Assembly: GCA_028282245.1 (NCBI GenBank)
Contig: JANQIL010000030.1
Span: forward strand, 8,538-32,537
DNA: 24,000 nucleotides
Origin: Magnetospira sp.
GTDB taxonomy: Bacteria > Pseudomonadota > Alphaproteobacteria > Rhodospirillales > Magnetospiraceae
Direction: 5' to 3'
In this document: one piece after another, positions 1-20,748 of the stretch
Layout: every line of letters begins with the position of its first letter
How positions within the stretch are numbered: position 1 is the stretch's first letter
Made by a program: the position numbers and the translations under genes
The notes under the pieces: generated by a model
What the model saw: only the letters and a program-made list of their open reading frames with translations
Database searches by the model: none
Told to the model about the DNA's origin: nothing

Positions 1-632
1 CCCTGGCCAATTTGACGGCCAAAACACCAAAGGACCAAAAGGCCGATCGTCATGTTCACCAGGCCGAGGACGAGGCCGCTCTTGAACGTCCCCAGAAACG
101 GCAGCAGAAGCAACGGAAAGGCCAGAGTCGCGATCAATGCCCCCAGGTAATCCAGGGACAGCACGTGCGCGATACTGATCCTTAGGGACTCATACGTCTC
201 CAGCAGACGGGTCAGGAACGGCACCTCCAGGCCGATGAGAAACCCGATGGCCAATGTCAGGCTCGCATAAACCCAGATGAAAACGTCGCTGTGGGAAAAC
301 GCGAGATAAAGGACCGGCACGGAAAAGCCGCCGAGCAGGCCCAAGGCGACCTCCGCCCCGACCAGGAACCGGAGAAGGTTCCCCTTGACAAACTTCGACG
401 CAAAGGCCCCGAGGCCCAGGGCGGCCATGTAGAGGCCGATGGTCAGCGAGAAATACCTCACGCTGTCTCCGAGGAAGTAAACCACGGTGGTCGCGATCAA
501 CAGCTCGTAAACGATGGAGCAAAGACCGGCAACGAAGACAGCGTAGACGAGGGTGAAGATCTCCGTCGACCGCCCTCGACCAGCGGTTTGGGCGATATCC
601 ATCGCTTGGATTTCGGTGGATGCGACACCCAT
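1..632 (-). CDS. Membrane-anchored spermidine/spermine-synthase-like protein (polyamine aminopropyltransferase family). Only the N-terminal multi-TM domain is in the window; the 3' part runs off the window start.
   Basis: Absent from the ORF track because it has no in-window stop. Hand translation of the minus strand from ATG 632-630 stays open down to base 3: MGVASTEIQAMDIAQTAGRGRSTEIFTLVYAVFVAGLCSIVYELLIATTVVYFLGDSVRYFSLTIGLYMAALGLGAFASKFV...HVLSLDYLGALIATLAFPLLLLPFLGTFKSGLVLGLVNMTIGLLVLW. The YEL..A....YFLGDS...FS..IG.Y and L..DYLGAL...L.FP..L.P.LG motifs match what I recall of the TM domain of fused spermidine-synthase-like proteins. An alternative start is ATG 602-600. The gene begins 6 nt after the stop of the upstream gene. 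Confidence 0.7.
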   Translation of the reverse strand, partial: MGVASTEIQAMDIAQTAGRGRSTEIFTLVYAVFVAGLCSIVYELLIATTVVYFLGDSVRYFSLTIGLYMAALGLGAFASKFVKGNLLRFLVGAEVALGLLGGFSVPVLYLAFSHSDVFIWVYASLTLAIGFLIGLEVPFLTRLLETYESLRISIAHVLSLDYLGALIATLAFPLLLLPFLGTFKSGLVLGLVNMTIGLLVLWCFGRQIGQ

Positions 633-638
633 CGGAAA

Positions 639-947
639 TTATTTGCCTCCCCGCATTCCTCCCCCCGCAACCTTGGGGCCGCCGACGCTCCCGGTGCGCG
701 CGCTCGGTCCGCCGGCCACGGTGCCCGCGCTCGACCCGCCGGCCACGGTGCCCGCGCCCGGCCCGCTGGTTCCGTGGTAGTAGGGTCGCGAACTGCCCCA
801 GTAGAAAAGGCCGCCTCCGGATCCCCGGAAATTGTTGTATCCGGGATAGCCGTATCCCTCGCTCGACGGCTTGAGGAGGAGCAGCCAAATCAAGACAAGA
901 ACTCCCCCGGTGATCAGCATGACCTTCGTTGTCTTGCTCATCATCAT
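639..947 (-). CDS. Small glycine/tyrosine-rich membrane protein of unknown function, 102 aa
   Basis: ORF MMMSKTTKVMLITGGVLVLIWLLLL... has one N-terminal TM helix. A 77-aa tail follows, with 25 Gly by my count plus GYGYPGY and AGTVAGG repeats. An AGGGGA Shine-Dalgarno-like sequence lies directly upstream of the triple ATG. It is wedged 17 nt after the upstream gene and 6 nt before the downstream gene on the same strand. Confidence 0.6.
   Translation of the reverse strand: MMMSKTTKVMLITGGVLVLIWLLLLKPSSEGYGYPGYNNFRGSGGGLFYWGSSRPYYHGTSGPGAGTVAGGSSAGTVAGGPSARTGSVGGPKVAGGGMRGGK
709..757. repeat. 27-bp-period tandem direct repeat inside the Gly-rich gene
   Basis: ccgccggccacggtgcccgcgc at 709-730 recurs identically at 736-757 (22/22). 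A degenerate third unit lies just upstream, at about 682-708. On the minus strand the repeat encodes the reiterated (S/G)AGTVAGG(S/P) peptide. Confidence 0.85.
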
Positions 948-964
948 TCCCCTATTCTTTTATT

Positions 965-1582
965 TTATTTAGTCATCTTCTCCACGAAACTCAAAATCGT
1001 CAGGTTGCGAATTTCGTTCATGAGCACCCCAACGATCAGAAGTATCCAAGCGATAATCTTTAAGGGACCGTTGCTGCCCCGAATGTGTCTGACTTTGACG
1101 GTCAGCTTGGTTTCTTTGTATGACTCAAAAAAGCCGACATTGGAATTGCGGCCGGTTTGCACGCGAAATTTTAAGTAGTAGATTCCCGACTCAGGTATGA
1201 CGACACGGATACCATTGAAATCTATGCTCTCTTCCCACCGTTCTCCACCATCGACCCCGGATTCATGATAGGTCTCACCGCCAAACGACATCAATGTGTT
1301 GTTTTTTTCGTCCAGAAGATCGGCCTCCACATACGCCCAGCCATTCCTCGGCGGAGAATTGACGATCTTTATCTCAAGGACCGTATTCGACTCGCTGGTT
1401 TTAATCGGACCATACAAATGGTAGGAGCTAATTTTTTTTAGTTCGGAATGCGTCCAAGAAGCGAAGTAGTAGGCCGTCGCGAAAAAGAGGAAGGAAAACC
1501 CGACGAAAACCAACCCCAACTTGCCCCAGTCGATTTTTTCGGGCTCGGTCTCCGTAACCTTGAGAAGTGGTCCCGTTTCCAT
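965..1582 (-). CDS. Two-TM membrane protein with a roughly 125-aa extracytoplasmic beta-rich domain; no family recognised (205 aa)
   Basis: The track ORF 965..1633 was trimmed to ATG 1582-1580, which has a GGAGG sequence 5-6 nt upstream and avoids overlap with the DUF350 gene stop at 1593. Sequence: METGPLLKVTETEPEKIDWGK-LGLVFVGFSFLFFATAYYFASW (TM1), a soluble region (VLEIKIVNSPPRNGWAYVEADLLDEKNN...GIYYLKFRVQTGRN...KLTVKVRHIRG), then LKIIAWILLIVGVLM (TM2). GC is about 38-47% in three hand-counted 60-nt lines, far below the flanks. Confidence 0.75.
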   Translation of the reverse strand: METGPLLKVTETEPEKIDWGKLGLVFVGFSFLFFATAYYFASWTHSELKKISSYHLYGPIKTSESNTVLEIKIVNSPPRNGWAYVEADLLDEKNNTLMSFGGETYHESGVDGGERWEESIDFNGIRVVIPESGIYYLKFRVQTGRNSNVGFFESYKETKLTVKVRHIRGSNGPLKIIAWILLIVGVLMNEIRNLTILSFVEKMTK

Positions 1583-1592
1583 CTCGAGCCTC

Positions 1593-2444
1593 CTACAACA
1601 GGGACACCAGGACAATGGCGAAGCAAACGGCAACGCACATTTCCAGGAAACCCGCCGCCAGATTACGGTCTTCCGAAATCTCCTTGTTCAAGGGGTGCCC
1701 CGTTAACACGAGTCTGTCCATGAACACGCGAACGACCTGAAGGACGACCATCCCAACGACGGCCGTATAGGCGAACACCTCCAGATTCGAGATCCAACCG
1801 ACGAAGTCGCCATAGGTCCCCTTGGCGACGATCAATCCGAGCGCGACCAGCGTGCCGCCGAATCCGACGCCAGCCGCGGTGTTGCCCTGCTCGATTTCCT
1901 TCTGCAGGTCGTAGGGCGTGGTCAGGTCGTACAGCCACGCGAACAGCAGCAGCACGGCCTGCCCAAGAACGAAGAACGCCAAGGCGGTATGGACGCCGCC
2001 ACCCTGTCCATTGATGCTCGCGGCGGCAACCAGCCCGGTGGCGACATAGACGCCGAAGCGGACCGCCGCCATTCCGATGTTCCGGCCCTCGACGATCGCC
2101 GTGATGTTGCAGAAGCGCCGGAAGATAAGCTTGTCCAAGCTCCACCGGGACAGATTGAGGAACACCAGGCCGAGGATCGAATACCCCGCCACCAAGCTCA
2201 TGTCGGTCAGCAAGTCATTGGTGCTCGGACCGATCAGGGCGCCGACGAAGATGATTGCCGTCGCGAGGAGATAGCCCGTCACCGACAGGCCGACCGCCGG
2301 ATTGTCCTTCTGCGCCAGTTGGACGATCAACTTGTAGGGGGTGAGAACATCCTTCAGGAGTTTCGCCAACAGGAAGAGGATCGCGTAGACGCCAACGAAG
2401 GCCAGCGACCTCAAGGTCTCGTCCCACAGCACGTCCCATTCCAT
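1593..2444 (-). CDS. DUF350 (YjfL-like) integral membrane protein with four DUF350-type repeats, 283 aa
   Basis: The DUF350-like signature occurs four times: LTPYKLIVQLAQKDNPAVGLSVTGYLLATAII, FCNITAIVEGRNIGMAAVRFGVYVATGLV, LTTPYDLQKEIEQGNTAAGVGFGGTLVALGLIV, and HPLNKEISEDRNLAAGFLEMCVAVCFAIVL. The protein is hydrophobic throughout. The start ATG lies 1 nt after the upstream stop (TGAcATG), with GGGGAG 6 nt upstream. Confidence 0.85.
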   Translation of the reverse strand: MEWDVLWDETLRSLAFVGVYAILFLLAKLLKDVLTPYKLIVQLAQKDNPAVGLSVTGYLLATAIIFVGALIGPSTNDLLTDMSLVAGYSILGLVFLNLSRWSLDKLIFRRFCNITAIVEGRNIGMAAVRFGVYVATGLVAAASINGQGGGVHTALAFFVLGQAVLLLFAWLYDLTTPYDLQKEIEQGNTAAGVGFGGTLVALGLIVAKGTYGDFVGWISNLEVFAYTAVVGMVVLQVVRVFMDRLVLTGHPLNKEISEDRNLAAGFLEMCVAVCFAIVLVSLL

Positions 2445-2445
2445 G

Positions 2446-3096
2446 TCAGGTCTCCCCGGAAACCGAATAGATGGTGATCTGCGAGGATTTCAGCGGCTGC
2501 GAGACGTGGCATTCAAACGCTCCGTCACCACGCCACCGCTCGATCGAAATGGACGTCTCTCCGTCGCGCGCCAGAAAGTCCCAATAGCGGAATTCCTCGC
2601 GGGACAGGACATTTCCGTTGCGATGGAAGACCGCCTCGCCGGAATCGTCGTACAGGTATTCGTCGTTCTCGAACTTGAAGCCGCCCTGTTCGTTATCGTC
2701 GAACCGGGACAGGTCTTTCTTGGTCACCTTGAGGTCGTCCAAGGACAGTTTGCGGAGCGTGACCGAGATCTCCAACTCGTCGTCGCGCTCGACCGTGACC
2801 CAGACCTTTCGCGCCCCGGCATTGCATTCCAGTTCCGCCCACTGGAAACCGTCTTCGTCGTAAAGGTGGCGAGCCTCGACGGTCAGGTCGATGTCGTCCA
2901 TGGCCGCGCCGACCGCCCGCAGGCTGAACACGCCGCCGGGCCTCATGTCCTCCAGGGTCGGTTCCCCGAAACCTCCGCGCCCCAAGGAAGATGTCTGGGC
3001 GCCCCTGGCCTTCTTCTTCGAAAAATTCGCCATGAAAATGACCAGCGTGGCGGCCCCCGCCACGAAAACCATGAAGAGGAGGAAGGTATAATCCAT
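2446..3096 (-). CDS. DUF4178 (YdjH-like) protein with an N-terminal TM anchor, 216 aa
   Basis: N-terminal helix FLLFMVFVAGAATLVIFMANF is followed by ...YDEDGFQWAELECNAGARKVWVTVERDDELEISV...YLYDDSGEAVFHRNG...RYWDFLARDGETSISIERW. The W.E...G...W..vE.DDELE and ...iE.W pattern is what I recall for DUF4178, a known PspA neighbour (B. subtilis ydjH). A GAGG Shine-Dalgarno-like sequence lies 5 nt upstream. Confidence 0.75.
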   Translation of the reverse strand: MDYTFLLFMVFVAGAATLVIFMANFSKKKARGAQTSSLGRGGFGEPTLEDMRPGGVFSLRAVGAAMDDIDLTVEARHLYDEDGFQWAELECNAGARKVWVTVERDDELEISVTLRKLSLDDLKVTKKDLSRFDDNEQGGFKFENDEYLYDDSGEAVFHRNGNVLSREEFRYWDFLARDGETSISIERWRGDGAFECHVSQPLKSSQITIYSVSGET

Positions 3097-3108
3097 GTTC
3101 GCCTCGCT

Positions 3109-3852
3109 TTACTTGCCCGGCAACCGCGCCGGCTCTCCAGGCGCCGGAAGCGCCCCCCCGACACCCATGCGAGCCTTCAGGTCCTCGAGCGAAGCCGACG
3201 TCCGGCCTCCACCACTCAGCGCGGCATTGATCTCGTCGTCCACGGAGTGGTCCATCCGCGCCAGTTCGCCATAGGCCTCGGCAAGGGATTCCTCCGTCGC
3301 CACCTTTTCCCGCATCCGCTCCAACATCGAGATGGTCCCCGAGGGATCCACCTGCGCCATTTGCTCGTTGAGCTTGCGGGTCGCCCTGCTGACCTGCGAC
3401 CGGGCCCTCAAGGTCTTGAGTTCGTTCTCCCATTTGGAGATGTTGGATCTGAGGGCCTGGATGTTGTTTTCCATCTGGCCGGTCATGGCATTGAGTTTTT
3501 CCAACTCGCGCATCTGAACCGTTCCGCGCTCGATGGCGCCGTCCCGCCTCCCCAAGGCTTCCGTCGCCAGCCTTTCCGCGTCGGCGACGTCCATCTCGCC
3601 GTTTTGCGCCTTCCCTAGCAGCAGCATGGCCTTCTGTTCATAGTCCGCGGCCGTTTCCTTGCTGTGCTGCAAGTCGCGCTTGGCCTTGATGACCTGCGCC
3701 TTCACCTGCCCGAGGCTCTGCATGGAATTGGACAGGTCCTGACGCAGATCGCGGATTCCCTGTTCGGCCACCTTGATGGGGTCCTCGAGCTTGTCCATCA
3801 CGGCATGGGCCTCGGACTTGCCCCAGGTGAACAGCCTGTTAAAAATGCTCAT
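3109..3852 (-). CDS. PspA/IM30 family protein (YjfJ-like phage-shock-protein-A paralog), 247 aa
   Basis: MSIFNRLFTWGKSEAHAVMDKLEDPIKVAEQGIRDLRQDLSNSMQSLGQVKAQVIKAKRDLQ... is the classic PspA/IM30 N-terminus. A long coiled coil follows. GGGGAGA lies 6 nt upstream of the ATG. Confidence 0.95.
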   Translation of the reverse strand: MSIFNRLFTWGKSEAHAVMDKLEDPIKVAEQGIRDLRQDLSNSMQSLGQVKAQVIKAKRDLQHSKETAADYEQKAMLLLGKAQNGEMDVADAERLATEALGRRDGAIERGTVQMRELEKLNAMTGQMENNIQALRSNISKWENELKTLRARSQVSRATRKLNEQMAQVDPSGTISMLERMREKVATEESLAEAYGELARMDHSVDDEINAALSGGGRTSASLEDLKARMGVGGALPAPGEPARLPGK

Positions 3853-3878
3853 CGGTCATCTCCCCGTTTCCATGCCAC

Positions 3879-4280
3879 TCAAGCCGGTTTCGCGAAACCG
3901 ACCAGTTCGTCGGCATGCATCGCCAATCCCAAGCCAAGGGCATTCAGGGACGCCTCCAACTCATTCAGGTCGAGGTTGGCCAATTGCAGGGTGTCTCGGA
4001 AAATCACGTGCGCCCCGTCCTCGTCCATGACGAAGGCGCCATGGACGAGCTCGCGGTTCATCTGCAACAGACGCTTATACATGGTCGCGTCGTCGCTCTT
4101 GACCGGAAAGATCACCTGCTCGATCACCAGAAGCTCGTCCTCGCAGTCGACAACCATGTGGTTCACGCCGCGATTCGCGTCGTTCACCACGTAAAGCGTG
4201 CGTTCCGCGTCCTCTTTGGCGATATCGACTTCAAGGTCTTCAAGGTAACCTTTGACTTTCTCAAAATAAGAATTCGACAC
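3879..4280 (-). CDS. Small acidic cytoplasmic protein, YjfI/DUF2170-like (secretion-chaperone-like fold suspected); first gene of the operon, 133 aa
   Basis: GTG start (cac at 4278-4280) with GGGGGAG 6 nt upstream. Sequence: MSNSYFEKVKGYLEDLEVDIAKEDAERTLYVVNDANRGVNHMVVDCEDELLVIEQVIFPVKSDDATMYKRLLQMNRELVHGAFVMDEDGAHVIFRDTLQLANLDLNELEASLNAL.... The family call rests on its position immediately upstream of a PspA paralog, on size (as I recall, close to that of E. coli YjfI), and on a YbjN/CesT-like alternation of strands and helices. It is not based on an alignment. Confidence 0.6.
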   Translation of the reverse strand: MSNSYFEKVKGYLEDLEVDIAKEDAERTLYVVNDANRGVNHMVVDCEDELLVIEQVIFPVKSDDATMYKRLLQMNRELVHGAFVMDEDGAHVIFRDTLQLANLDLNELEASLNALGLGLAMHADELVGFAKPA

Positions 4281-4323
4281 GATTCACTCCCCCAGGGCGG
4301 ATACGGCCTAACCGAGAGCGAGC

Positions 4324-4351
4324 AGTATGGGGTTTCTCGTGCAAAGGTCAA
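4324..4351 (-). promoter_or_regulatory. Candidate sigma70-type promoter of the PspA-family operon
   Basis: The minus strand reads TTGACC (4351-4346), a 16-nt spacer, then CATACT (4329-4324), about 40 nt upstream of the GTG at 4280. AT-rich DUF-free DNA lies upstream and contains the 8-bp palindrome AATGCATT (about 4367-4374). No convincing sigma54 -24/-12 element was found, unlike E. coli pspA. Confidence 0.3.
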
Positions 4352-4499
4352 CGGGGCGTCGTCGAAATGCATTAAATATTACGCTGTGTTCTGCTTATGG
4401 TTGTTTATTCTTGGCAAAAATTTCAAGAAAACCAGAGCGATTTTCGCGGATAAGATTTGAACGACTCTTTGGAGTCACGGGCGATTGACGCCCAAAACC

Positions 4500-4583
4500 G
4501 GATCGGTCACCCGCCTTGCCCGGCAGCAAATCCTCAATCCGCGCCCATTGCGCGTCGGTCAGGGTTCTTCTGCTCAAGATCAT
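4500..4583 (-). pseudogene. Remnant of an IS5-family (DUF4096-type N-terminus) transposase gene
   Basis: ORF 4395..4583 begins MILSRRTLTDAQWARIEDLLPGKAGDR. This matches the conserved L(T/S)D.(E/Q)W..I..LLPGK..D.G N-terminus of IS4/IS5-family transposases. Similarity then stops and the frame ends after 62 aa, with no transposase body in any frame. It lies between the operon promoter and the stop of the diguanylate cyclase gene. Confidence 0.5.
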
Positions 4584-4647
4584 CTCCCGTTTTTGATCTT
4601 GAATCAGAAATCTCCCGGCTTGGGAATCCTTTTAATGAAGACGCCGC

Positions 4648-5682
4648 CTAGGCCGCGACCACCAGCTTGTTCTTGCCGGCCTGCTTGGCTTCGAGCAGGG
4701 CGGAGTCCGCGCGCTCCAGGAACGCTTGCAGGGATTCCGGCGGGGAGTAGCTGGTCATTCCCATCGAAATCGTCAGGTTGCCGAAGGTTTCGTTGCTGCC
4801 GCGCCGGCGCAACGGCGTCGAGGCCATTCGATCGCGCAGTCTTTCGGCCAGGTGCCGGGCATCGGCCGGGCCGATCTTGGAGAGCAAGATGACGAATTCG
4901 TCGCCGCCGAACCGTCCGCAGAGGTCGTGGTCGCGCACGCCGCTCCGAATGATCCGCGCCACCAGCTTGAGCACCATGTCGCCCACCGGATGGCCGTAGT
5001 TGTCGTTGAACCGCTTGAAATCGTCGATGTCGAAAAACAGCATGGCCAAGCCCTCCTCGCGCGCGTCCGGGGAGGTCAGGAGCCTTTCCACCTCGTCCTC
5101 GAAATGGCGCCGATTGAACAGACCCGTCACCACGTCGGTGCGCGCCATCTGCCGGATTTCGTCCAGTTGGGCCTTCAATATGTTCACGGTCCGGGTCGAC
5201 TCGCGCAACCTGTCGCACAGCGCCCGGTTGGTTTCGACGAGACCGTCGGTATCGAACTTGGCGCCGTTGATGATGCGCCGGGTCTCGGCATCGTCCCGGG
5301 CCGCGACGAGACGCTCCGACAAACCGCCGAGGTGCCCCCCGAAAGCCTCGGTATCGCGCTCGATCGTCTGCGCCGAGCGGACGATCTCGCCGGCCTCGAC
5401 GGCCAGAAGTTGCCCCGAATTGGTGAACTCCTCGAATTCCGGCAATGACAGGAGGCGCGTGCAGACGATCCGCGTCTTGTCGGCGAGGCTTGCCGATTGG
5501 TTCGGGGCCTCGGCCATGTCGCGGGCCTCCAGGGCCTCGCTGAGGCCTCGGATTTCATCCCGGGCCTCGGCCAGGAACGCACTGATGTAGACTGTCTTCA
5601 GGGGCAGGCCATGGGATTCCATGGCCCGATAGGCCTGTTCGAGCTCCTTCGTGATGTGGTCAAACGTTTTGCTAGTGATCAT
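4648..5682 (-). CDS. GGDEF-domain diguanylate cyclase with I-site, 344 aa
   Basis: The C-terminal half reads DVVTGLFNRRHFEDEVERLL...LAMLFFDIDDFKRFNDNYGHPVGDMVLKLVA...RDHDLCGRFGGDEFVILL. The GGDEF active site is intact, and RxxD (RDHD) lies five residues upstream, forming the allosteric I-site. The N-terminal 170 aa or so is helical or coiled-coil, with no TM segment or recognisable sensor domain. Confidence 0.9.
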   Translation of the reverse strand: MITSKTFDHITKELEQAYRAMESHGLPLKTVYISAFLAEARDEIRGLSEALEARDMAEAPNQSASLADKTRIVCTRLLSLPEFEEFTNSGQLLAVEAGEIVRSAQTIERDTEAFGGHLGGLSERLVAARDDAETRRIINGAKFDTDGLVETNRALCDRLRESTRTVNILKAQLDEIRQMARTDVVTGLFNRRHFEDEVERLLTSPDAREEGLAMLFFDIDDFKRFNDNYGHPVGDMVLKLVARIIRSGVRDHDLCGRFGGDEFVILLSKIGPADARHLAERLRDRMASTPLRRRGSNETFGNLTISMGMTSYSPPESLQAFLERADSALLEAKQAGKNKLVVAA

Positions 5683-5716
5683 TCCAGTTCTGCGTCGTTA
5701 GGGTTGCCGAAACAGT

Positions 5717-5745
5717 ACTATACCAAAGTTAAAGATTTGTGCCAG
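5717..5745 (-). promoter_or_regulatory. Candidate extended -10 promoter for the diguanylate cyclase gene
   Basis: The minus strand reads CTGGCA (5745-5740), a 17-nt spacer, then TGG-TATAGT (the -10 at 5722-5717, preceded by TG). This is about 35 nt upstream of ATG 5682. Confidence 0.35.
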
Positions 5746-5748
5746 TGA

Positions 5749-5777
5749 TTGAGAACTCCAGGCCGAAACCGTTAAAT
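5749..5777 (+). promoter_or_regulatory. Candidate sigma70 promoter for ppa
   Basis: TTGAGA (5749-5754), a 17-nt spacer, then TTAAAT (5772-5777). It sits back to back with the divergent cyclase promoter, about 90 nt upstream of ATG 5871. Confidence 0.35.
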
Positions 5778-5870
5778 CGATTTTGCGATGCGGCAACATC
5801 TTGCGTCGCCGCTCGGGGCCGCGTATCACATCCTTCGCCTGCCAGACCCTTACCCGCGACAGGAGCACCC

Positions 5871-6407
5871 ATGGACATCGAAAAAATCGCCGTCGGCAAG
5901 AATCCTCCCTACGACATCAACGTCCTGATCGAGATTCCCCTGGGCGGCAATCCGGTCAAGTACGAACTCGACAAGGAGTCCGGCGCGATGTTCGTCGACC
6001 GATTCCTGCATACCGCCATGTATTACCCGTTCAATTACGGGTTCGTGCCGCACACCCTGTCGGAGGATGGCGACCCGGTGGACGCCGCCGTCGTCGGCCG
6101 GATTCCGGTGGCGCCCGGCGTGATCATCCGGTCGCGGCCGATCGGGGTGTTGATCATGGAGGACGAGGCGGGCATCGACGAGAAGCTGCTTTGCGTTCCG
6201 GTCGACGACCTGCACCCGTATTATACCGACACCACCTCGTATCGCGACCTGCCGACCATCATGATCGAGCAGTTCGCCCATTTCTTCGGCCACTACAAGG
6301 ACCTGGAAAAGGGCAAGTGGGTGCAGGTGAAGCGCTGGGGCGAAGCCGCGGAGGCGTTCGACCTGCTGCGCGCCGGCATGGAGCGGGCAATCAACGCCGA
6401 CAAGTAG
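5871..6407 (+). CDS. ppa: Inorganic pyrophosphatase (family I), 178 aa
   Basis: The track ORF 5739..6407 was trimmed to ATG 5871, which has AGGAG at 5861-5865. MDIEKIAVGKNPPYDINVLIEIPLGGNPVKYELDKESGAMFVDRFLHTAMYYPFNYGFVPHTLSEDGDPVD...HFFGHYKDLEKGKWVQVKRW aligns along its length with E. coli PPase as I recall it. Confidence 0.95.
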   Translation: MDIEKIAVGKNPPYDINVLIEIPLGGNPVKYELDKESGAMFVDRFLHTAMYYPFNYGFVPHTLSEDGDPVDAAVVGRIPVAPGVIIRSRPIGVLIMEDEAGIDEKLLCVPVDDLHPYYTDTTSYRDLPTIMIEQFAHFFGHYKDLEKGKWVQVKRWGEAAEAFDLLRAGMERAINADK

Positions 6408-6464
6408 GCGGCATGGCGCGGCGGCGGACTGGCCGAACGCGACTCGCGGTGATATTATAGCGCC

Positions 6465-7370
6465 ATGACTGTCCGCCGTCCCCTGATCGGTCTGCTGTCC
6501 GTCGCCATGGTCGCGCTTCCGGCCGTGGCGCAGACGCCGCGTTATCAGCCTTGGACCGATCCGAACCGCGACGCCACCGGCACGGCGGGCGAATTCGCAT
6601 CCCGATTGCGGACCCTGGTCGACGAGGCCGAGCGATCAAAGGCCGCCGATCCGCAGTTTCTGCGGGATCTGCGGGCGCTGGCCGACAGCTACGCCGGCGG
6701 CGGCCAGGCCACCACGCCAACTCCGGTGGCGAGGCTTGACGAGACGTTCGCCGACGGCGACTTCACGCGCGATCCGACGTGGACGGTGACGGCCGGCAAG
6801 TTCTGGATCGAATCCGGCTATGGCCTGCGCAGCGCGGTTGATCGCGCCGCCGCCACGCCGAAGACCGGCGACCTGACCGACGAGCAGAAGGCGCTGGCCA
6901 TTCTCGGCGCCGTGCTCGGAGCCCAAACCGGTGTTCCGGCGAGCGGCGCGTCGACCACGCCGACGGCCGAGATCCATGTCGGCACGCCGATCGACAACGC
7001 CTTCTCGATCCGCCTCGAACTGGCTTCCTGGCGGGCGGGCGGGCGTCTTGAGATCGGCCCCGGGCAGCGCGCCCACGGCGACGGCGGCTATCGGCTGTCC
7101 TACGACGGCGGTCGCTGGGAAATGCTGCGCGTGGGGACGCGCGGCAGCGAGGTGATCGATGTCGCGGTGACCCGGCGCACCATCGAGGACAACAGGATGC
7201 ATGACATCCATTGGACCCGCGACCGACGCGGCCGGATGTCCGTCGTCCTGGATGGCGCGGTCCTGCTGACCGCCCGCGACAACGGGTATCGCGACTCCTT
7301 CGACCGGCTGCTGCTGACCAACCGGGGCGGTGATTTCACCCTGCGCCGGGTGACCGTGGACGGACGATGA
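6465..7370 (+). CDS. Exported protein of unknown function (signal peptide; possible concanavalin-A/LamG-like beta-sandwich in the C-terminal half), 301 aa
   Basis: Signal peptide MTVRRPLIGLLSVAMVALPAVA-QT. The C-terminal half (FTRDPTWTVTAGKFWIESGYGLRS...FSIRLELAS...YRLSYDGGRWEMLRVG...HDIHWTRDRRGRMSVVLDGAVLLTARD...FTLRRVTVDG) resembles lectin/DUF1080-like jelly-roll proteins. The fold call is an inference only. Confidence 0.7.
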   Translation: MTVRRPLIGLLSVAMVALPAVAQTPRYQPWTDPNRDATGTAGEFASRLRTLVDEAERSKAADPQFLRDLRALADSYAGGGQATTPTPVARLDETFADGDFTRDPTWTVTAGKFWIESGYGLRSAVDRAAATPKTGDLTDEQKALAILGAVLGAQTGVPASGASTTPTAEIHVGTPIDNAFSIRLELASWRAGGRLEIGPGQRAHGDGGYRLSYDGGRWEMLRVGTRGSEVIDVAVTRRTIEDNRMHDIHWTRDRRGRMSVVLDGAVLLTARDNGYRDSFDRLLLTNRGGDFTLRRVTVDGR

Positions 7371-7388
7371 ACCGACGGACGGACGGTT

Positions 7389-7404
7389 GATCCGGCGCCG
7401 GATC
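7389..7404. repeat. Perfect 16-bp palindrome between convergent genes (possible bidirectional terminator stem or binding site)
   Basis: GATCCGGCGCCGGATC at 7389-7404 lies in the 78-bp gap between the stop of the exported-protein gene (7370) and the ccmI stop (7449). It is preceded by an (ACGG)3 run. No flanking U-tract was seen. Confidence 0.3.
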
Positions 7405-7448
7405 GGCCGGCAGGCACCCGCGAGCGACACCGGTTTTCGGGCTTCGGA

Positions 7449-8636
7449 TCACTGCTGGTCCAGAAGGCGGCGGATGCGCGCCTCGGCCGCCTCGGCCTTC
7501 CCGGTCTCGCCGAGAACCCGGTAGGCCCGCGCCAGACGCCGCCAGCCGGCGAGATCGTCCGGGTTGGCCTCGAGCCGCAGGGCGAGACCCTCGACCATGC
7601 CACGGATCATCGCCGTCCGCTCCTCGGGCGTCATCTCGGCGGCCTGCCGCATGTCCTCGCGGGTCGGCCCCGGGGAATCGGCGACCGGGTCCGGACGGGC
7701 CGACTCCGCCACCTCGCGGCCCAGCGCGATCGCGTCCTCGGTCGGAGCCACGGTGGCCGGATCGATCCCGGAATCCCCGGCGACGCGGCCGATCATCTGC
7801 TCCACGGCGTTCATCCAGGGGGCACCCTCCGGACCGATGGCGCGGATGTCGATCAGGTCCCGCAGGGCGCCCGCCAGATCGCCATTCTGGGCCTTGCGGT
7901 TGGCAAGATAGAAGCGCGGCTTGGGATGCGTCGGATCGGACGCCCGCCCGTCCCTCAGCAACCCGGCCGCCCGGTCGCCGACCCGGCCGCCGTCGGCGAT
8001 CACCAGGGCCTCGGCGAAATCGATTCCCACCACATGGCGGTCGTCGCCGTCGAGTCGCGTCCAGGCCTCCTCGAAGGCCGCCGCCGCGTCCGCGTAGCGC
8101 TTCATCGACAGGTAGGATCGGGCGAGCAGCAGCCAGCCGTCGGGATCGTCCGGCGACCGCCGCATCCGTTCGGCGAGGCGGTCAAGCATCGCTTCCATGC
8201 CCGGCGCCTGGGCGGGATCGCCGCCGTCCGCGACGGATGGTTGCGGCGCCGCCCGACGATCGGCGGCCGGGGCTCCCGGCTGCTCGGGCGAGCCCATGTC
8301 GAGGTACAGCAGAAAGGCGGCCAGCGGCATCACGCCGGCGATCCCGATGGCCAGCACCCGCCCGCCGCCGCCCTGGGCGTTCTCCGGCGATCCGTCCGAC
8401 CGGTCGGCCAGGGCGAGGATGCGGCGCTGGATTTCGGTGCGCAGGGCGTCGGCCTGCTCGGCGCTCACCAGCCCGCGCTCCAGATCACGGTCGATGTCGT
8501 TGATCTGGTCGCGAAAGACGGTCAGATCATAGTCGGCGCGCTCCGCCCCGGGGGCGCGACGGCGCAACAACGGCGGCAGGACGAGTCCCAGAACGAGAAC
8601 GGTCAGGGCGCCGATCGCGAGCCACAGGCTGGTCAC
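7449..8636 (-). CDS. ccmI: Cytochrome c-type biogenesis protein CcmI (CycH), TPR-containing, 395 aa
   Basis: The track ORF 7449..8795 was trimmed to GTG 8636-8634, which overlaps the ccmH stop (GTGA). VTSLWLAIGALTVLVLGLVLPPLLRRR... forms TM1, a second TM follows (VLAIGIAGVMPLAAFLLYL), and the periplasmic part is TPR-like (WLLLARSYLSMKRYADAAAAFEEA..., WRRLARAYRVLGETGKAEAA). It is the last gene of the ccm cluster. Confidence 0.85.
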   Translation of the reverse strand: MTSLWLAIGALTVLVLGLVLPPLLRRRAPGAERADYDLTVFRDQINDIDRDLERGLVSAEQADALRTEIQRRILALADRSDGSPENAQGGGGRVLAIGIAGVMPLAAFLLYLDMGSPEQPGAPAADRRAAPQPSVADGGDPAQAPGMEAMLDRLAERMRRSPDDPDGWLLLARSYLSMKRYADAAAAFEEAWTRLDGDDRHVVGIDFAEALVIADGGRVGDRAAGLLRDGRASDPTHPKPRFYLANRKAQNGDLAGALRDLIDIRAIGPEGAPWMNAVEQMIGRVAGDSGIDPATVAPTEDAIALGREVAESARPDPVADSPGPTREDMRQAAEMTPEERTAMIRGMVEGLALRLEANPDDLAGWRRLARAYRVLGETGKAEAAEARIRRLLDQQ

Positions 8637-9121
8637 CGGTCGCCATCCTCCAGAATTTTCTCCAGGCGCCGCCGCTCGGCGTCGCTGAGAGCGGGGTCCA
8701 CGGCGCCGGTCGGCCCCGCGCCGGCGGCGCGATGGCGATAGAACGCGAACATGCCGATCAGGCCGATCACCATCAGAATCACCGGCCCGGCCCATAGCAG
8801 CAGGGTCTGCGGCTTGACCGGCGGCTTCAGCAACACGTAATCGCCGTAGCGCGACACCACGTAGTCCACCACCTCGCGGTCGTCGTCGCCGGTTTTCAGG
8901 CGGTCGCGCACCAGCACCCGCATGTCGCTGGCCAGTTCGGCGTTGGAATCCTCAATGGACTCGTTCTGGCAGACCAGGCAGCGCAACTCCCTGCCGATCT
9001 CCTGAGCCCGCTTCTCCAGCGCCGGATCCTCCAGCATCTCGGACGGATCGGCGCCGCCGGCCGGCGGCGCGGCCAAGGCGAACGCCAGAACTAGCGCGAA
9101 AACGGCGGCATGCCGGGTCAT
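8633..9121 (-). CDS. ccmH: Cytochrome c-type biogenesis protein CcmH (CycL), 162 aa
   Basis: A signal peptide is followed by the diagnostic LRCLVCQNESIEDSNAELA motif, a C-terminal TM helix and a charged tail. Its start overlaps the ccmG stop (ATGA at 9118-9121). Confidence 0.9.
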   Translation of the reverse strand: MTRHAAVFALVLAFALAAPPAGGADPSEMLEDPALEKRAQEIGRELRCLVCQNESIEDSNAELASDMRVLVRDRLKTGDDDREVVDYVVSRYGDYVLLKPPVKPQTLLLWAGPVILMVIGLIGMFAFYRHRAAGAGPTGAVDPALSDAERRRLEKILEDGDR

Positions 9122-9660
9122 GGCGTCCTCAATTCCTCGATCAGGGGTCGGATGGTCCGGGTCCAGACCTCCGGGGTAAGCGGGCCGATGTGCTTATAGC
9201 GGATGATGCCCCTTTGATCGACGATGAAGCTTTCCGGAGCCCCGGTGACCCCGAACGCGATCGCCGCCTTGGAGTCCGGGTCGTCGCCGACCCGCGTGTA
9301 GGGGTCGCCGAACCGGGCCAGCCAGGCGGGACCGGCGTCGCGGTCCTTTTCGCGCCAGTCGATGCCGTAGATGGGAACCTCGCGGCTGGCCTTGATGTCG
9401 ACCAAGAACCCGTGCTCGGCCCGACAAGCGATGCACCACGACCCGAAGATGTTGACCAGGGTCACCTGGCCCAGCAGGTCGGCCGACGCGAACCCCTCGG
9501 TCCGGCCCTTGATCGGCGGCAGATCGAACGGCGGCACCTCCTGATTGATCAGCACCGAGTCGATGCGGTGCGGATCCTTGCCCAGCTGCGACCAGAACAG
9601 GCCACCCAGGCCGAGCACCATGATCAATGGCAGCAAATAGATCCAGCGTTGCACGGGCAT
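9118..9660 (-). CDS. ccmG: Thiol:disulfide oxidoreductase CcmG/DsbE, 180 aa
   Basis: An N-terminal anchor (WIYLLPLIMVLGLGGLFW) is followed by a thioredoxin fold with VTLVNIFGSWCIACRAEH and GVTGAPESFIVDQRGIIRYKHIGPL. Confidence 0.9.
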   Translation of the reverse strand: MPVQRWIYLLPLIMVLGLGGLFWSQLGKDPHRIDSVLINQEVPPFDLPPIKGRTEGFASADLLGQVTLVNIFGSWCIACRAEHGFLVDIKASREVPIYGIDWREKDRDAGPAWLARFGDPYTRVGDDPDSKAAIAFGVTGAPESFIVDQRGIIRYKHIGPLTPEVWTRTIRPLIEELRTP

Positions 9661-9673
9661 CGTCCTCCGTCGC

Positions 9674-11635
9674 CTATTCCGCCGGCTGGGCGGCGGCGCG
9701 CAGACGGCTGCGCCTCGGGGCTCCGATCCGGTACCGCCGATCGGTCAGGCTCAACGTGCCGCCGGCGACCATGATCAGGCAACCGACCCACATCCAGGGC
9801 ACCAGCGGATTCCAGTAGAGACGGACCACGTGGCCGTCGCCCTGTGGGTCGCCGATCACCGCGTAGAGATCGCCGGCCAGCATGCTGTGGATCGCCGCCT
9901 CGCTGGTCGGCCGGCCCTCCACCGGATAAATCCGCTTCTCCGGGGTCAGGACGACCACCTCGTCGCCGTCGCGGCGCGCCGTGAAGGTGCCCCGGGTGGC
10001 CTCGTAGTTGGGGCCGGGTCGGCTGTCCACGCCGTCCAGGGTGAGATCGAACCCGCCAATGGACGCGGTCTCGCCCGTTCGCATGACGAGGACCCGTTCC
10101 TGTTCCCACAATCCGGCCCCGGTCATTCCGGCGATGGCCACCGCGAGACCCAGGTGGGCCAGGGTCATGCCCCAGGCGCTGCGCGGGGTATGGGCCATGC
10201 GCTTGGGGCTGAGACGGGTGCGACCGACGAATTCGGCCAGGGTACCGCCGGCCAGCCACACCGCGAGCCCGATACCGACCATGGACATGACCAGGTATTC
10301 GCCCACCATGACTCCGGTCAGCGCCGCCGCGCCCAGGGTCATGGCGGCGACGAACCACAGGCGCTTCAGGGCCGGCATGAGATCGGCCCGCTTCCAGGAC
10401 AGCAGGGGTCCGATCCCCATGGCCACGATCATCGGCACCATCAGCGGCACGAACACCGAATTGAAGAACGGCGGCCCCACCGAGACCTTGTAGTCGAAGG
10501 CCTGGGCCAGCAGCGGGAACAGGGTGCCGAGCAGCACCGTGGCGGTGCCCACCGACATCAAGAGGTTGTTGAACAGCAGGCTGCCCTCGCGCGAGATCGG
10601 CTGGAACAGGCCACCCGCCTTCATGCTCGGGCCGCGCCAGGCGAACAGGGCCAGGGAGCCGGCGATGGTGATCAGCAGCAGCGCGAGGATGAAAACGCCG
10701 CGCGTCGGATCGGTGGCGAAGGCGTGCACCGACGACAAGACCCCGGAGCGGACCAGGAAGGTGCCGAGCAGGCTCAGCCCGAAGGTGACGATGGCCAGGA
10801 AAACGGTCCACGCCTTCAGGCCGTCGCGCTTCTCGACCACCAGGGCCGAATGCAGAAGGGCGGTACCGGCCAGCCAGGGCATGAACGAGGCGTTCTCAAC
10901 CGGGTCCCAGTACCACCAGCCACCCCAGCCCAACTCGTAGTAGGCCCACCAGGAGCCGAGCGCGATGCCGACGGTCAGGAAGCACCACGCGGCCAGGGTC
11001 CAGGGTCGCACCCAGCGCGCCCAGGCGGCGTCCACCCGGCCCTCGATCAGTGCCGCGATGGCGAACGAGAAGGCCATCGAGAAGCCCACGTAGCCTAGGT
11101 AGAGAAACGGCGGATGGAAGGCCAGCCCCGGGTCCTGAAGCAGCGGGTTGAGGCCGCGCCCGTTGAGGGGCACCATCTCGGCCGGAATGCGCTCGAACGG
11201 GTTGGAGGTGAACAGGACGAACAGCAGGAAGCCGACCGCCACCATCGCCTGCACGGCGAGGGCGCGCGCCTTCAGGCCGGGCGGCAGGTTGCGCCCGAAC
11301 ATCCCCACGGCGCCACCGAACAGGGCGAGGATCAGCACCCACAGCAGCATGGAGCCCTCGTGGTTGCCCCACACGCCGCTGACCTTGTAGAGCATCGGCT
11401 TGTCGGTGTGCGAATTGGCGGCCACGTTGAGGACCGAGAAATCGGACGTCACGTAGGCGTGGGTCAGGGCGGCGAAGGACACCCCGACCAGGAACAATTG
11501 GCCGATCGAGGCCGGCGCCGCGAAATCCATCCACGCCGTGTTGCCGCGCTGCGCGCCCACCATCGGCACCACCGACTGCGCGATCGCGACGCAGAGCGCC
11601 AGAATAAGGGCGAAATGGCCGATTTCGGTGATCAT
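9674..11635 (-). CDS. ccmF: Cytochrome c heme lyase subunit CcmF, 653 aa
   Basis: MITEIGHFALILALCVA... is polytopic and carries the WWD motif WGGWWYWDPVENASFMPWL plus the conserved His residues typical of CcmF. Confidence 0.95.
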   Translation of the reverse strand: MITEIGHFALILALCVAIAQSVVPMVGAQRGNTAWMDFAAPASIGQLFLVGVSFAALTHAYVTSDFSVLNVAANSHTDKPMLYKVSGVWGNHEGSMLLWVLILALFGGAVGMFGRNLPPGLKARALAVQAMVAVGFLLFVLFTSNPFERIPAEMVPLNGRGLNPLLQDPGLAFHPPFLYLGYVGFSMAFSFAIAALIEGRVDAAWARWVRPWTLAAWCFLTVGIALGSWWAYYELGWGGWWYWDPVENASFMPWLAGTALLHSALVVEKRDGLKAWTVFLAIVTFGLSLLGTFLVRSGVLSSVHAFATDPTRGVFILALLLITIAGSLALFAWRGPSMKAGGLFQPISREGSLLFNNLLMSVGTATVLLGTLFPLLAQAFDYKVSVGPPFFNSVFVPLMVPMIVAMGIGPLLSWKRADLMPALKRLWFVAAMTLGAAALTGVMVGEYLVMSMVGIGLAVWLAGGTLAEFVGRTRLSPKRMAHTPRSAWGMTLAHLGLAVAIAGMTGAGLWEQERVLVMRTGETASIGGFDLTLDGVDSRPGPNYEATRGTFTARRDGDEVVVLTPEKRIYPVEGRPTSEAAIHSMLAGDLYAVIGDPQGDGHVVRLYWNPLVPWMWVGCLIMVAGGTLSLTDRRYRIGAPRRSRLRAAAQPAE

Positions 11636-11660
11636 GGGGCGTGGTCCCGCTCCGTCGGGG

Positions 11661-12140
11661 TCAGTTGGCGGGCATCGCCGACGGGTCGCCTTGGGTCATG
11701 GCGCCCTTGAACTCCTCCCATTTGCCGGACTCCTTGAGGGCATCGGCCACCTCCGGCGGCATGTAATTCTCGTCATGCTTGGCCAGCACCTCGTCGGCCC
11801 GGAACACGCCGTCTATCAGCCGCCCCTCGGCGACCACGCCCTGTCCCTCCCGGAACAGGTCGGGCAGGATGCCCTCGTAGACCACCGGCGTGCTGTGCAC
11901 CATATCGGTCACCTTGAACCGGACAAAACCCGAATTATCGGTGCGCGCCACGCTGTTCTCCTCGACAAGACCGCCCAGGCGCAGCCGGCGGTCCGGCGGC
12001 ACGTCCTGCTCGATCATTTGGGTCGGGCTATAGAAGAAAACAATGCTGTCCTCGAAGGCCGTCAGGATCAGAGCCGTCGCGACGCCCAGGGCGAGCAGGC
12101 CGATGGCGACGAAGGTCAGGCGCTTGTGCTTACGCTTCAC
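11661..12140 (-). CDS. ccmE: Heme chaperone CcmE, 159 aa
   Basis: MKRKHKRLTFVAIGLLALG anchor, then FFYSPTQM...LRLGGLV...V.F.VTD... and the heme-binding histidine context VLAKHDENYMPPEV. Confidence 0.95.
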   Translation of the reverse strand: MKRKHKRLTFVAIGLLALGVATALILTAFEDSIVFFYSPTQMIEQDVPPDRRLRLGGLVEENSVARTDNSGFVRFKVTDMVHSTPVVYEGILPDLFREGQGVVAEGRLIDGVFRADEVLAKHDENYMPPEVADALKESGKWEEFKGAMTQGDPSAMPAN

Positions 12141-12324
12141 CGTCGGGCTCCCGTTCGAGTTGAATGGTCCGGAGGAGGTTGTCGAGCGCCGCTTCCTCGC
12201 CGCGCAGGCTGCGCAGGCTGTGGATAAACGCCCCGATCAACACCGCGAAGGCAATTCCGTAGACCGGCCAGACGTAGGCGGCGTAGCCACCCATGTCCAG
12301 CCATTCGCCGATCGATCCCTGCAT
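12130..12324 (-). CDS. ccmD: Heme exporter protein CcmD, 64 aa
   Basis: MQGSIGEWLDMGGYAAYVWPVYGIAFAVLIG... aligns with E. coli CcmD (...WNEFFAMGGYAFFVWLAV...). It lies between ccmC and ccmE and overlaps the ccmE start by 11 nt. Confidence 0.75.
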   Translation of the reverse strand: MQGSIGEWLDMGGYAAYVWPVYGIAFAVLIGAFIHSLRSLRGEEAALDNLLRTIQLEREPDGEA

Positions 12325-12362
12325 GGATTGGTTCTCCGTGGGGCCGGTTCACGCCGCGCCGT

Positions 12363-13088
12363 TCACACGGCGCCGTGCGCCTGGCGCAGACGTAGCGCGC
12401 GCACCTTGCCGGCCGTGACCTCGGCACGCATTCTCAGAAGCAAAACATAGATGTAGTAGGCCTTGAAGGCGAATGCCATCAGGAGCAGCGGCACCATCAT
12501 GGAGGCGTCGATGGCCGGGCCGCCCATCTTCACAACGCTGGCCGGCTGATGCATGGTGGTCCACCAGTCGACCGAGAACTTGATGATCGGCACGTTGATG
12601 AGGCCGACCAGCGCCAGCACGGCGCCCGCCTTGAGGCCGCGTTTCGGGTCGTCGAAGGCGTGGATCAGGGCAATGTAACCGAGATACAGGAACAGCAGCA
12701 CCAGCTCGGCGGTCAACCGGGCATCCCAGACCCACCACTTGCCCCACATGGGCTTGCCCCAGAAGGCGCCGCTGATCAGGGTGACGATCGTGAAGGCGGC
12801 GCCAATGGGCGCCGAGCCTTTGGCCGCCACGTCGGCCACCGGATGTTTCCAGATCAGCCCGACCCCGGCCGAAATCGCCATCACCACGTAACAGAACAAG
12901 GACATCCAGGCGGCCGGCACGTGCACGTACATGATCCGCACCGTCTCGCCCTGCTGATAGTCCGGCGGCGAGTCGAAGAGAGCGAACCACAGCCCGGCGA
13001 TACCGAGCAACAGGGTCAGGCCCCCGGCCCAGGGCAGCAGCATTCGCGAAAGTTTCATGAATCTGCTGGGATTGGCGTACCTGAACAT
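12363..13088 (-). CDS. ccmC: Heme exporter protein CcmC, 241 aa
   Basis: The start was set at ATG 13088-13086 (MFRYANPSRFMKLSRMLLPW), matching the Rhodobacter HelC N-terminus as I recall it (MSIWEYANPVKFM...). The WWD motif is WGKPMWGKWWVWDARLT. Confidence 0.9.
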   Translation of the reverse strand: MFRYANPSRFMKLSRMLLPWAGGLTLLLGIAGLWFALFDSPPDYQQGETVRIMYVHVPAAWMSLFCYVVMAISAGVGLIWKHPVADVAAKGSAPIGAAFTIVTLISGAFWGKPMWGKWWVWDARLTAELVLLFLYLGYIALIHAFDDPKRGLKAGAVLALVGLINVPIIKFSVDWWTTMHQPASVVKMGGPAIDASMMVPLLLMAFAFKAYYIYVLLLRMRAEVTAGKVRALRLRQAHGAV

Positions 13089-13203
13089 CGTCCCCAAGAT
13101 CCGAAATGGCTAGGCGTTGTCTCGTCATAGCCTGTCTGGCCGCCCGTTTCCAGCCCCCAACGAGACCACGCTATGGCCGGCCTGTGGCAAAAAAAAGGCG
13201 GCC

Positions 13204-14519: not shown

Positions 14520-14584
14520 GGGCACTCCGAACGGAAAACGGCGTCAGCTATAGCAAACGCCCGCCATCGCGCCCAACCGAAAAG

Positions 14585-15907: not shown

Positions 15908-20748
<4,841 letters not shown>

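Follow-up and report, generated by a model that had tools for sequence, protein, structure and literature searches.

Gene content and layout of the operon

We analyzed a stretch of 24,000 nucleotides (nt) from Magnetospira sp. (assembly GCA_028282245.1, contig JANQIL010000030.1, positions 8,538 to 32,537 of the forward strand), here called the window. The part nearest to position 1 contains an operon on the reverse strand, in which the genes for a CesT/Tir-like protein and a PspA/IM30 protein are followed by a series of genes for membrane proteins, ending in the window with the beginning of a gene for a membrane-fused, spermidine-synthase-like enzyme. The genes of the operon located in the window, here called G1 to G7, and a candidate promoter were placed as follows:

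3879-4280, reverse strand: G1, CesT/Tir-like protein, GTG start, 133 amino acids
3109-3852, reverse strand: G2, PspA/IM30 protein, 247 amino acids
2446-3096, reverse strand: G3, DUF4178 protein, 216 amino acids
1593-2444, reverse strand: G4, DUF350 protein, 283 amino acids
965-1582, reverse strand: G5, 205 amino acids
639-947, reverse strand: G6, 102 amino acids, or 101 if the second ATG is used
1-632, reverse strand: N-terminal part of G7, the enzyme gene, with its start at 632 and open at window position 1; 210 amino acids are encoded in the window and the other 319 outside it
4324-4351, reverse strand: candidate sigma70-like promoter, TTGACC-16-CATACT, 44 nt upstream of the G1 start codon

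The spacers between consecutive genes, in the order from G1 to G7, were 26, 12, 1, 10, 17, and 6 nt, which confirmed the initial annotation of seven genes on the same strand with gaps of 1 to 26 nt. Each gene had also been assigned a Shine-Dalgarno sequence of its own, and a purine-rich motif (GGAG, GAGG, or AGGAGG) could be read from the sequence ahead of all seven start codons. The proposal of a single candidate promoter held in so far as a sigma70-like site was located upstream of G1, but the site should be regarded as a mere match to the consensus, because the scan returned 3 promoter-type sites in 5.8 kb, which is near the 1.5 +/- 1.3 sites expected from shuffled sequences. No sigma54-type -24/-12 site was found upstream of G1, and the 367-nt leader upstream of this gene had no match to the elements in Rfam.

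The operon comprises eight genes, one more than was first annotated, and continues past window position 1. An exact-protein look-up identified a metagenome contig of 10.1 kb (L001) that aligned without a single mismatch to positions 1-7566 of the window and reached 2542 nt past window position 1. The full-length G7 gene was taken from this contig (L001:6935-8524). It was followed by a gene for a K+ channel, which contained an Ion_trans_2 domain with a TVGYGD filter and an RCK/TrkA_N domain. The gene caller placed the start of the channel gene 131 nt past G7, while the reading frame was open upstream to a GTG codon 11 nt after the G7 stop codon, which would give a protein of 357 amino acids. 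Judging from the sequence, the start at 11 nt is the most likely one, because the basic, extended N-terminus matches that of homologues of 354 to 356 amino acids in other loci. Neither a terminator nor a promoter was found between G7 and the channel gene.

Protein families of the cassette

The first 2 genes encode what appears to be a functional pair. G1 is an acidic protein of the CesT/Tir-like chaperone fold, with Pfam matches to CesT_Tir_1 (PF22550, E 7e-53), YbjN (E 4e-8), and CesT (E 8e-5). DUF2170 was absent from its Pfam matches at E <= 0.1, and the description of G1 as YjfI-like was thereby retained at the level of the superfamily but not of the family, which is CesT_Tir_1. G2 is a PspA/IM30 protein, ESCRT-III-like, which matched PF04012 over residues 2-228 (E 3e-41). 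It scored 50 bits against the NCBIfam PspA equivalog TIGR02977, far under the cutoff of 243, and is therefore classified as a YjfJ-type paralog rather than as canonical PspA. The adjacency of a CesT/Tir-superfamily gene to a PspA gene, here at a distance of 26 nt, was a constant feature: an equivalent of G1 was located directly upstream of the PspA gene in all related loci that extended that far. From its sequence and position, G1 is the predicted partner of the PspA paralog.

The third and fourth proteins are both associated with the membrane. G3 consists of an N-terminal transmembrane helix and a beta-rich DUF4178 domain (PF13785, E 5e-18), and in its AlphaFold2 model (predicted local distance difference test, pLDDT, 87) a helix at residues 2-29 is followed by two beta meanders. 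The DUF4178 domain is predicted to be cytoplasmic, because the single transmembrane helix is followed by a stretch that is rich in lysine and arginine (on average 5.7 such residues). G4 matched DUF350 (PF03994, E 1e-54) in two stretches of the 133-position model, and 8 hydrophobic segments were readable from its sequence; it is thus predicted to be a protein with 8 transmembrane helices, made of two YjfL-type DUF350 units of 4 helices each. The Pfam results for G2, G3, and G4 support the original assignment of these genes to a PspA protein, a membrane-anchored DUF4178 protein, and a DUF350-repeat protein, respectively.

G5 had no match in Pfam or NCBIfam, and a word-indexed search for homologues retrieved G5 alone. 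An exhaustive HMMER search, in contrast, revealed a family of 284 cluster representatives at E <= 1e-3, of which 106 were recovered at E <= 1e-10. Its positional equivalents in the related loci showed sequence identities of 36% to 42%. The AlphaFold2 model of G5 (pLDDT 93.5; predicted template modelling score 0.80) consists of a transmembrane helix, a jelly-roll-like sandwich of about 9 strands and about 130 amino acids, and a second transmembrane helix, and the sandwich is predicted to be periplasmic from the counts of lysine and arginine. Nearly invariant columns of the alignment include G58, P59, W82, F100, E107, G109, D111, W116, E118, G133, Y135, and G169; an acidic and aromatic set among the nearly invariant residues is formed by W82, E86, E107, D111, W116, and E118.

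The G5 domain was repeatedly found in fusion with other components of the cassette. DUF4178 was fused to it, on either side, in 5 of the 67 G5 homologues scanned, and a complete G6 was present at the C-terminus of at least 7 G5 homologues (G6 hidden Markov model, E 1e-19 to 1e-5). The possibility that G5 is itself a homologue of DUF4178 was rejected, with a probability of 1.3% in the profile-profile comparison by hhalign, and the two domains are fused partners rather than homologues. It was also noted that 2 G5 paralogs were arranged in tandem in one locus (L016:10385-11613), and that G5 was flanked on both sides by G6-like genes in another (L019:10681-11793), where the first of them carried a lipobox-like LIMGSC signal.

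G6 is built from an N-terminal transmembrane anchor and a tail rich in glycine and tyrosine. The alignment of 12 homologues contained the common motifs GYGY, FxxxGG, and RxGSxGGP, and all 12 sequences ended in Gly-Lys, an ending that was also kept in the fused forms. A search with the family profile recovered 108 clusters of 45 to 101 amino acids, none of which had a Pfam domain or a functional name. DUF1190 (the YgiB/YjfM, PF06693-type family), which was among the families named in the initial annotation, was ruled out for this glycine-rich protein, since none of the 12 homologues matched it, or any other Pfam family, even at E <= 10. Wherever G6 was encoded by a separate gene, this gene was located immediately upstream of the enzyme gene. 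The counts of lysine and arginine lean toward a periplasmic location of the tail, and the layout of the G5::G6 fusions, with three transmembrane helices, brings the tail and the sandwich of G5 to one side of the membrane. A lipobox-like FSC was observed in the G6 protein of locus L026. Taken together, the family searches, the synteny, and the fusions identify G5 and G6, which at first could not be placed, as conserved core components of the cassette.

The fragment of G7 in the window had no Pfam match, but aligned to the N-terminal 200 positions of PRK03612 (NF002956, E 1e-53). The full protein of 529 amino acids has seven hydrophobic helices in residues 26-234, followed by a Spermine_synth domain (PF01564, residues 285-468, E 2e-37). 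It matched the PRK03612/NF002956 polyamine aminopropyltransferase model over positions 11-521 of 522 with 565.1 bits (cutoff 472), and the MFS_SpdSyn model NF037959 for fused MFS/spermidine synthases with 53.9 (cutoff 40). The catalytic core could be aligned to the structures of ACL5 thermospermine synthase (6bq2) and a SpeE-type aminopropyltransferase (7xif), and the aminopropyltransferase motifs for catalysis and for the binding of decarboxylated AdoMet, Q..DE..YHE, GGGDG, DLD, and DLPDP (D-x-x-D-P), were all kept. The Pfam and NCBIfam matches of the full protein bear out its description as a polytopic, spermidine-synthase-like protein, and the aminopropyltransferase domain, for which a check in the recovered full gene had been recommended, is present and intact.

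A count of lysine and arginine in the loops of 11 homologues of G7 gave 8.9 such residues for the loops assigned to the inside and 1.7 for those assigned to the outside, which favors a topology with seven transmembrane helices and the N-terminus in the cytoplasm. Three acidic residues inside the predicted transmembrane helices 1, 4, and 5 (E43, E136, and D161) were invariant across the 11 aligned homologues, a pattern that would fit a route across the membrane domain that binds cations or amines. It was also observed that residues 294-463, which represent the S-adenosylmethionine (SAM)-fold core, matched the mad2 model of the MADS defence system in PADLOC (E 2e-15), and this is taken to be a probable similarity at the level of the fold or family.

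Membrane proteins fused to SpdSyn-like domains reportedly cluster with DUF350, as described by Li, Kurihara, Kim, Liang, and Michael in 2019, who are also said to have emphasized their co-occurrence with AdoMet decarboxylase. With its full-length match to PRK03612 above the cutoff and its match to MFS_SpdSyn, G7 resembles the fusion type of Li et al. 2019. In a JBC 2025 article that cites this work, bacterial fusions of membrane domains and aminopropyltransferases are stated to have been found experimentally not to be involved in spermidine or spermine biosynthesis (PMC12803844). Given this statement, the local synthesis of polyamines that was originally proposed for the operon is doubtful; no speD gene was seen in the window.

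Conservation of the cassette and relation to described systems

To recover related loci, we used the alignment of DUF4178, since the G5 alignments lacked any stretch conserved enough for retrieval. The searches identified about 10 lineages of alphaproteobacterial metagenome-assembled genomes (MAGs) and one bin labelled Gastranaerophilales. The gene order G1-G2-G3-G4-G5-G6-G7 was kept in the alphaproteobacterial loci, with protein identities of 42% to 75%, and this recurrence of the same order across lineages shows that the arrangement is not due to chance. The gene for the K+ channel was located directly after G7 in four of the alphaproteobacterial lineages. The same eight genes were found in the cultured gammaproteobacterium Marinobacter sp. 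R17 and in a Nitrospirae MAG, where the channel gene came first.

Rearranged versions were also identified. Locus L025 contained genes for DUF2170, PspA, a divergent DUF4178, an RHH-like protein (assigned by eye from the sequence), the K+ channel, DUF350, a G5::G6 fusion, and SpmS, and loci L026 and L027 contained the genes for DUF350, G5, G6, and SpmS. As the alphaproteobacterial, Marinobacter, Nitrospirae, and permuted loci all agree in this respect, the genes of the quartet DUF350-G5-G6-enzyme lie side by side in all complete loci that were sampled, while the genes linked to it, for the CesT-PspA dyad, DUF4178, and the channel, vary in order. In L027, the quartet was followed by a gene for a phage terminase large subunit (Terminase_6C) and a DUF2924 gene (L027:3894-5309), and this copy is therefore next to or inside a prophage-like region. 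In one marine metagenome lineage (L007:1069-1737 and L008:714-2562), genes for a canonical pspF-like sigma54 activator and a pspA of 222 amino acids were located immediately upstream of the CesT-PspA cassette, so that two Psp-type systems adjoin in this lineage.

These patterns bear directly on the idea that the linkage is fortuitous, with G7 an ordinary spermidine synthase that happens to be located beside an unrelated PspA stress operon. Such a protein could have the score above the cutoff of the NCBIfam polyamine aminopropyltransferase model and the intact catalytic motifs that were observed here. However, the synteny extends across classes and phyla, the permutations keep the set together, neighboring genes are bound to each other by fusions, the genes are only 1 to 26 nt apart, and the statement in PMC12803844 holds that such fusion proteins are not involved in spermidine or spermine synthesis. 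This explanation is most improbable and has largely been refuted already.

The combination of genes had been singled out in the initial annotation as the best candidate for an undescribed variant. However, its class has already been described by Ravi, Anantharaman, Aravind, Gennaro et al. 2024 (mSystems, PMC11237479) as the second major group of CesT/Tir-PspA operons. The parts of this group are a 7-TM::spermine-synthase fusion (TM, transmembrane), a DUF350 protein with 8 transmembrane helices, DUF4178, a Ctha_1186 lipoprotein, and sometimes an RHH protein (PMC11237479). The CesT/Tir-PspA dyad, the 7-TM::SpmS fusion, the 8-TM DUF350 protein, and the DUF4178 domain predicted to be intracellular all have counterparts in the operon studied here. 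The exemplar is the locus of Shewanella oneidensis SO_3765 (PspA, AAN56746.1), with the gene order lipoprotein(Ctha_1186+low-complexity)->DUF350->SpmS->CesT(DUF2170)->PspA->DUF4178->RHH (PMC11237479). The Magnetospira operon differs from it in that the dyad comes first, the chaperone is of the CesT_Tir_1 type, there is no RHH gene, and a K+ channel gene is appended.

A further difference is that the Shewanella exemplar has a single lipoprotein gene where the operon studied here has G5 and G6. These 2 genes take the equivalent place, and lipobox-like signals were present in some G5 and G6 homologues, whereas the G5 and G6 proteins of the window have uncleaved transmembrane anchors and no cysteine. 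The bridging locus L025, which combines DUF2170, the RHH-like gene, and the K+ channel with a G5::G6 fusion, suggests that the published lipoprotein of Ctha_1186 plus low-complexity sequence may correspond to G5 plus G6.

The yjfIJKLMC operon of Escherichia coli, which represents the third group of Ravi et al. and encodes an ATP-grasp ligase resembling glutathionylspermidine synthetase, shares with the present operon a CesT-superfamily protein, a YjfJ-type PspA, DUF350, a small glycine-rich or lipoprotein component, a polyamine-type enzyme, and, among operons of its type, a K+ channel. The differences are that the enzyme in the operon studied here is an aminopropyltransferase fusion and that its DUF350 protein has 8 rather than 4 transmembrane helices. 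None of the operon products had a Pfam match to DUF2170 (YjfI), DUF2491 (YjfK), DUF1190 (YjfM), or the ATP-grasp ligase (YjfC), and at the level of matched families the overlap comes down to PspA, DUF350, and the K+ channel.

The closest studied dyad, and the only pair of a CesT-fold protein and a PspA paralog for which there are experimental data, is BacA/BacB of Pseudomonas aeruginosa. BacA (PA3732) is a DUF2170 protein with a type III secretion system chaperone fold and a determined crystal structure, which exerts negative control on the bac operon, and BacB (PA3731) is a PspA-like protein that is induced by osmotic shock (PMC10948618). As in our operon, the gene for the chaperone-fold protein is located directly upstream of the gene for the PspA paralog, and they are the first 2 genes. 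The bac operon differs in that, according to its authors, it has no spermidine-synthase-like gene and contains a putative sigma54 site (PMC10948618), while no such site was found here; furthermore, BacA belongs to DUF2170 and not to CesT_Tir_1.

The resemblance to the canonical Psp system (pspF-pspABCDE) is limited to an effector of the PspA/IM30 family and its amphipathic segment at the N-terminus. Domain scans of the open reading frames (ORFs) in the window identified no Sigma54_activat, PspB, or PspC domains, which, together with the motif search for sigma54 sites, upholds the earlier observation that the window lacks pspF, pspB, and pspC as well as a sigma54 promoter; the score of G2 against TIGR02977 is likewise below the cutoff. 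A mixture with YdjH-type partners had also been proposed, but no TPM domain of the YdjH type was present in the operon products. Furthermore, a DUF4178 gene had been said to be located beside pspA in Bacillus subtilis, whereas in the account of ydjFGHL by Ravi et al. YdjG is given without DUF4178.

No new class of operons is proposed here. What is added is the invariant quartet DUF350-G5-G6-enzyme, the delimitation of the G5 and G6 families, and their fusions. In addition, the K+ channel is seen to recur in the cassette, Marinobacter sp. R17 provides a cultured host, and the C-terminal lysine of G6 is a candidate acceptor. The question that these components address is which substrate is used by the widespread membrane-fused, spermidine-synthase-like enzymes, and why PspA/ESCRT-III scaffolds recur together with polyamine-type enzymes.

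Proposed role and genomic surroundings

The region represents a copy of a conserved cassette of eight genes for the inner membrane, which belongs to the second group of Ravi et al. We consider this reading, together with the following mode of action, somewhat more probable than the reverse (a probability of about 0.55). DUF350, G5, G6, and the enzyme would form a trans-membrane complex that exposes the jelly roll of G5 and the tail of G6 to the periplasm, and DUF4178 would be on the cytoplasmic side. The enzyme would use decarboxylated AdoMet to aminopropylate an acceptor at the membrane other than putrescine or spermidine. This acceptor may be G6 itself, the head group of a lipid, or a component of the envelope, and the modification would alter the local charge. 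The CesT-like partner would restrain or deliver the PspA paralog, which would polymerise on the cytoplasmic face and thereby stabilise the membrane during the process carried out by the enzyme or during the triggering stress. In parallel, the K+ channel would tune the cation flux and the membrane potential. The coupling of a PspA scaffold to polyamine-type chemistry at the membrane had been suggested for this operon in the initial annotation, and the same inference was made by Ravi et al. 2024, who read this operon class in terms of membrane dynamics (PMC11237479). The interpretation offered in the initial annotation, as a whole, is partly supported.

Several observations weigh against this proposal. 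All of the mechanistic steps are inferred from gene context. The topology with the N-terminus inside and seven transmembrane helices would place the catalytic domain of G7 in the periplasm, by the G6 tail but away from the decarboxylated AdoMet in the cytoplasm, so that an error must lie in the predicted topology or else in the simple view of the enzyme. Neither the window nor the regions flanking the related loci contained a gene for AdoMet decarboxylase (speD). The folds are uninformative: a search of the Protein Data Bank (PDB) with the DUF4178 protein G3 gave no match at E <= 0.001, and G5 matched only generic jelly rolls (birnavirus VP2, TNF-like, and GOLD) with template modelling scores of about 0.3. 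Finally, PspA was not in view on two short contigs with the quartet, and because both of these end at the DUF350 gene or shortly before it, the link to PspA may or may not be obligatory.

An alternative that gives more weight to the channel is that the cassette mainly serves cation or osmotic homeostasis. K+, through the RCK-gated channel, and a polyamine-like cation that is produced or transported by the 7-TM enzyme together with DUF350 would be exchanged across the membrane, while PspA would preserve the proton-motive force. The linkage of the channel in varied positions in four alphaproteobacterial lineages, Marinobacter, Nitrospirae, and two other metagenome lineages agrees with such a role, as do the invariant E43, E136, and D161 in the transmembrane helices of the enzyme. 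In addition, a K+ channel is also present in related operons that contain ATP-grasp, DUF350, and PspA genes (PMC11237479), and BacB is induced by osmotic shock (PMC10948618). However, in four of the alphaproteobacterial lineages (L012, L016, L017, and L018) the enzyme gene was not directly followed by a channel gene, and G5, G6, and DUF4178 would be left without a role. We regard this explanation as unlikely.

A narrower variant of the aminopropylation scheme identifies G6 as the substrate of the enzyme. In this case, G6 would be aminopropylated on its invariant C-terminal lysine, G5 would serve as a periplasmic partner or scaffold, and PspA would protect the membrane during assembly. This would be in line with the Gly-Lys ending of all 12 aligned homologues and of the fused forms, with the finding that the enzyme gene is directly preceded by a G6 or G5::G6 gene in all loci examined, and with the periplasmic placement of both the tail and the catalytic domain by the lysine and arginine counts. 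It would also agree with the published statement that homologous fusion enzymes make no spermidine or spermine (PMC12803844). However, decarboxylated AdoMet is cytoplasmic, and a conserved C-terminal lysine could equally serve in sorting or anchoring. Moreover, we know of no description of protein aminopropylation by a SpeE-type enzyme in bacteria, which also counts against the scheme. In the published Shewanella example, the gene that is the candidate equivalent is not beside the enzyme gene (PMC11237479). Altogether, we find it quite unlikely that G6 is the substrate.

It is very unlikely, on our assessment, that G7 makes no free polyamine at all and instead aminopropylates the C-terminal lysine of G6, or another amine, on the outer face of the inner membrane with decarboxylated AdoMet that is passed through its own 7-TM domain. 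If true, the cassette would constitute a bacterial system for protein aminopropylation, akin to hypusine formation or to the polyamination of lysine of the silaffin type, coupled to a PspA repair scaffold and a K+ channel.

With regard to the origin of the operon, the GC content of the operon region was below that of the remainder of the window. The GC content at third codon positions (GC3) was 0.74-0.84 for the operon genes and 0.80-0.91 for the neighboring genes, the sole outlier being G5 with a value of 0.61 and an overall GC content of 47%. The low value for G5 could be the result of fast evolution or of a recent replacement of this gene alone. Immediately upstream of the operon, between G1 and the next gene, we noted an ORF of 62 amino acids at 4395-4583 on the reverse strand, the start of which, LTDAQWARIEDLLPGKAGDR, matched positions 1-26 of DUF4096 (E 4e-4, below the gathering score). 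DUF4096 is the N-terminus of IS4/IS5-family transposases, and from this match the ORF looks like the remnant of an insertion sequence just upstream of the operon promoter region.

An anti-phage defence system, or an otherwise mobile accessory island, would be in accordance with this IS5-type remnant, the lower GC content of the operon, the match of G7 to mad2, and the phage terminase gene that adjoins the quartet in L027. Against this, the mad2 match is limited to the SAM-fold core, the PADLOC search otherwise gave only weak matches to the coiled coil of PspA, the GC3 values are close to those of the neighbors, and the flanking genes, both in the window and in related loci, have housekeeping functions and differ between lineages. 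The evidence for a horizontal transfer of the operon is weak, and a role in defence or as a mobile island has very little probability.

Directly upstream of the operon, on the same strand, the window contains a gene for a GGDEF diguanylate cyclase of 344 amino acids (4648-5682, reverse strand), in which the N-terminal 180 amino acids or so are without a Pfam match. The stop codon of this gene is followed by two weak terminator-like hairpins. The GGDEF gene was also present on L001, and was not beside the cassette in the other lineages. Further away, positions 7449-14525 on the reverse strand contain a complete cluster for cytochrome c maturation (System I), with genes for CcmA, CcmB, CcmC, CcmE, CcmF, the thioredoxin-like CcmG, CcmH, and a TPR-containing CcmI/CycH. 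A sortase gene was located beside a gene for a VIT and VWA protein of 751 amino acids (15338-18159, reverse strand), and we take this pair to resemble the pairing of sortase and VIT-vWA genes of proteobacteria. It is adjoined by a gene for a CxxCxxCC protein (14585-15259), and a gene for a CHAD-domain protein was identified at 22829-23956.

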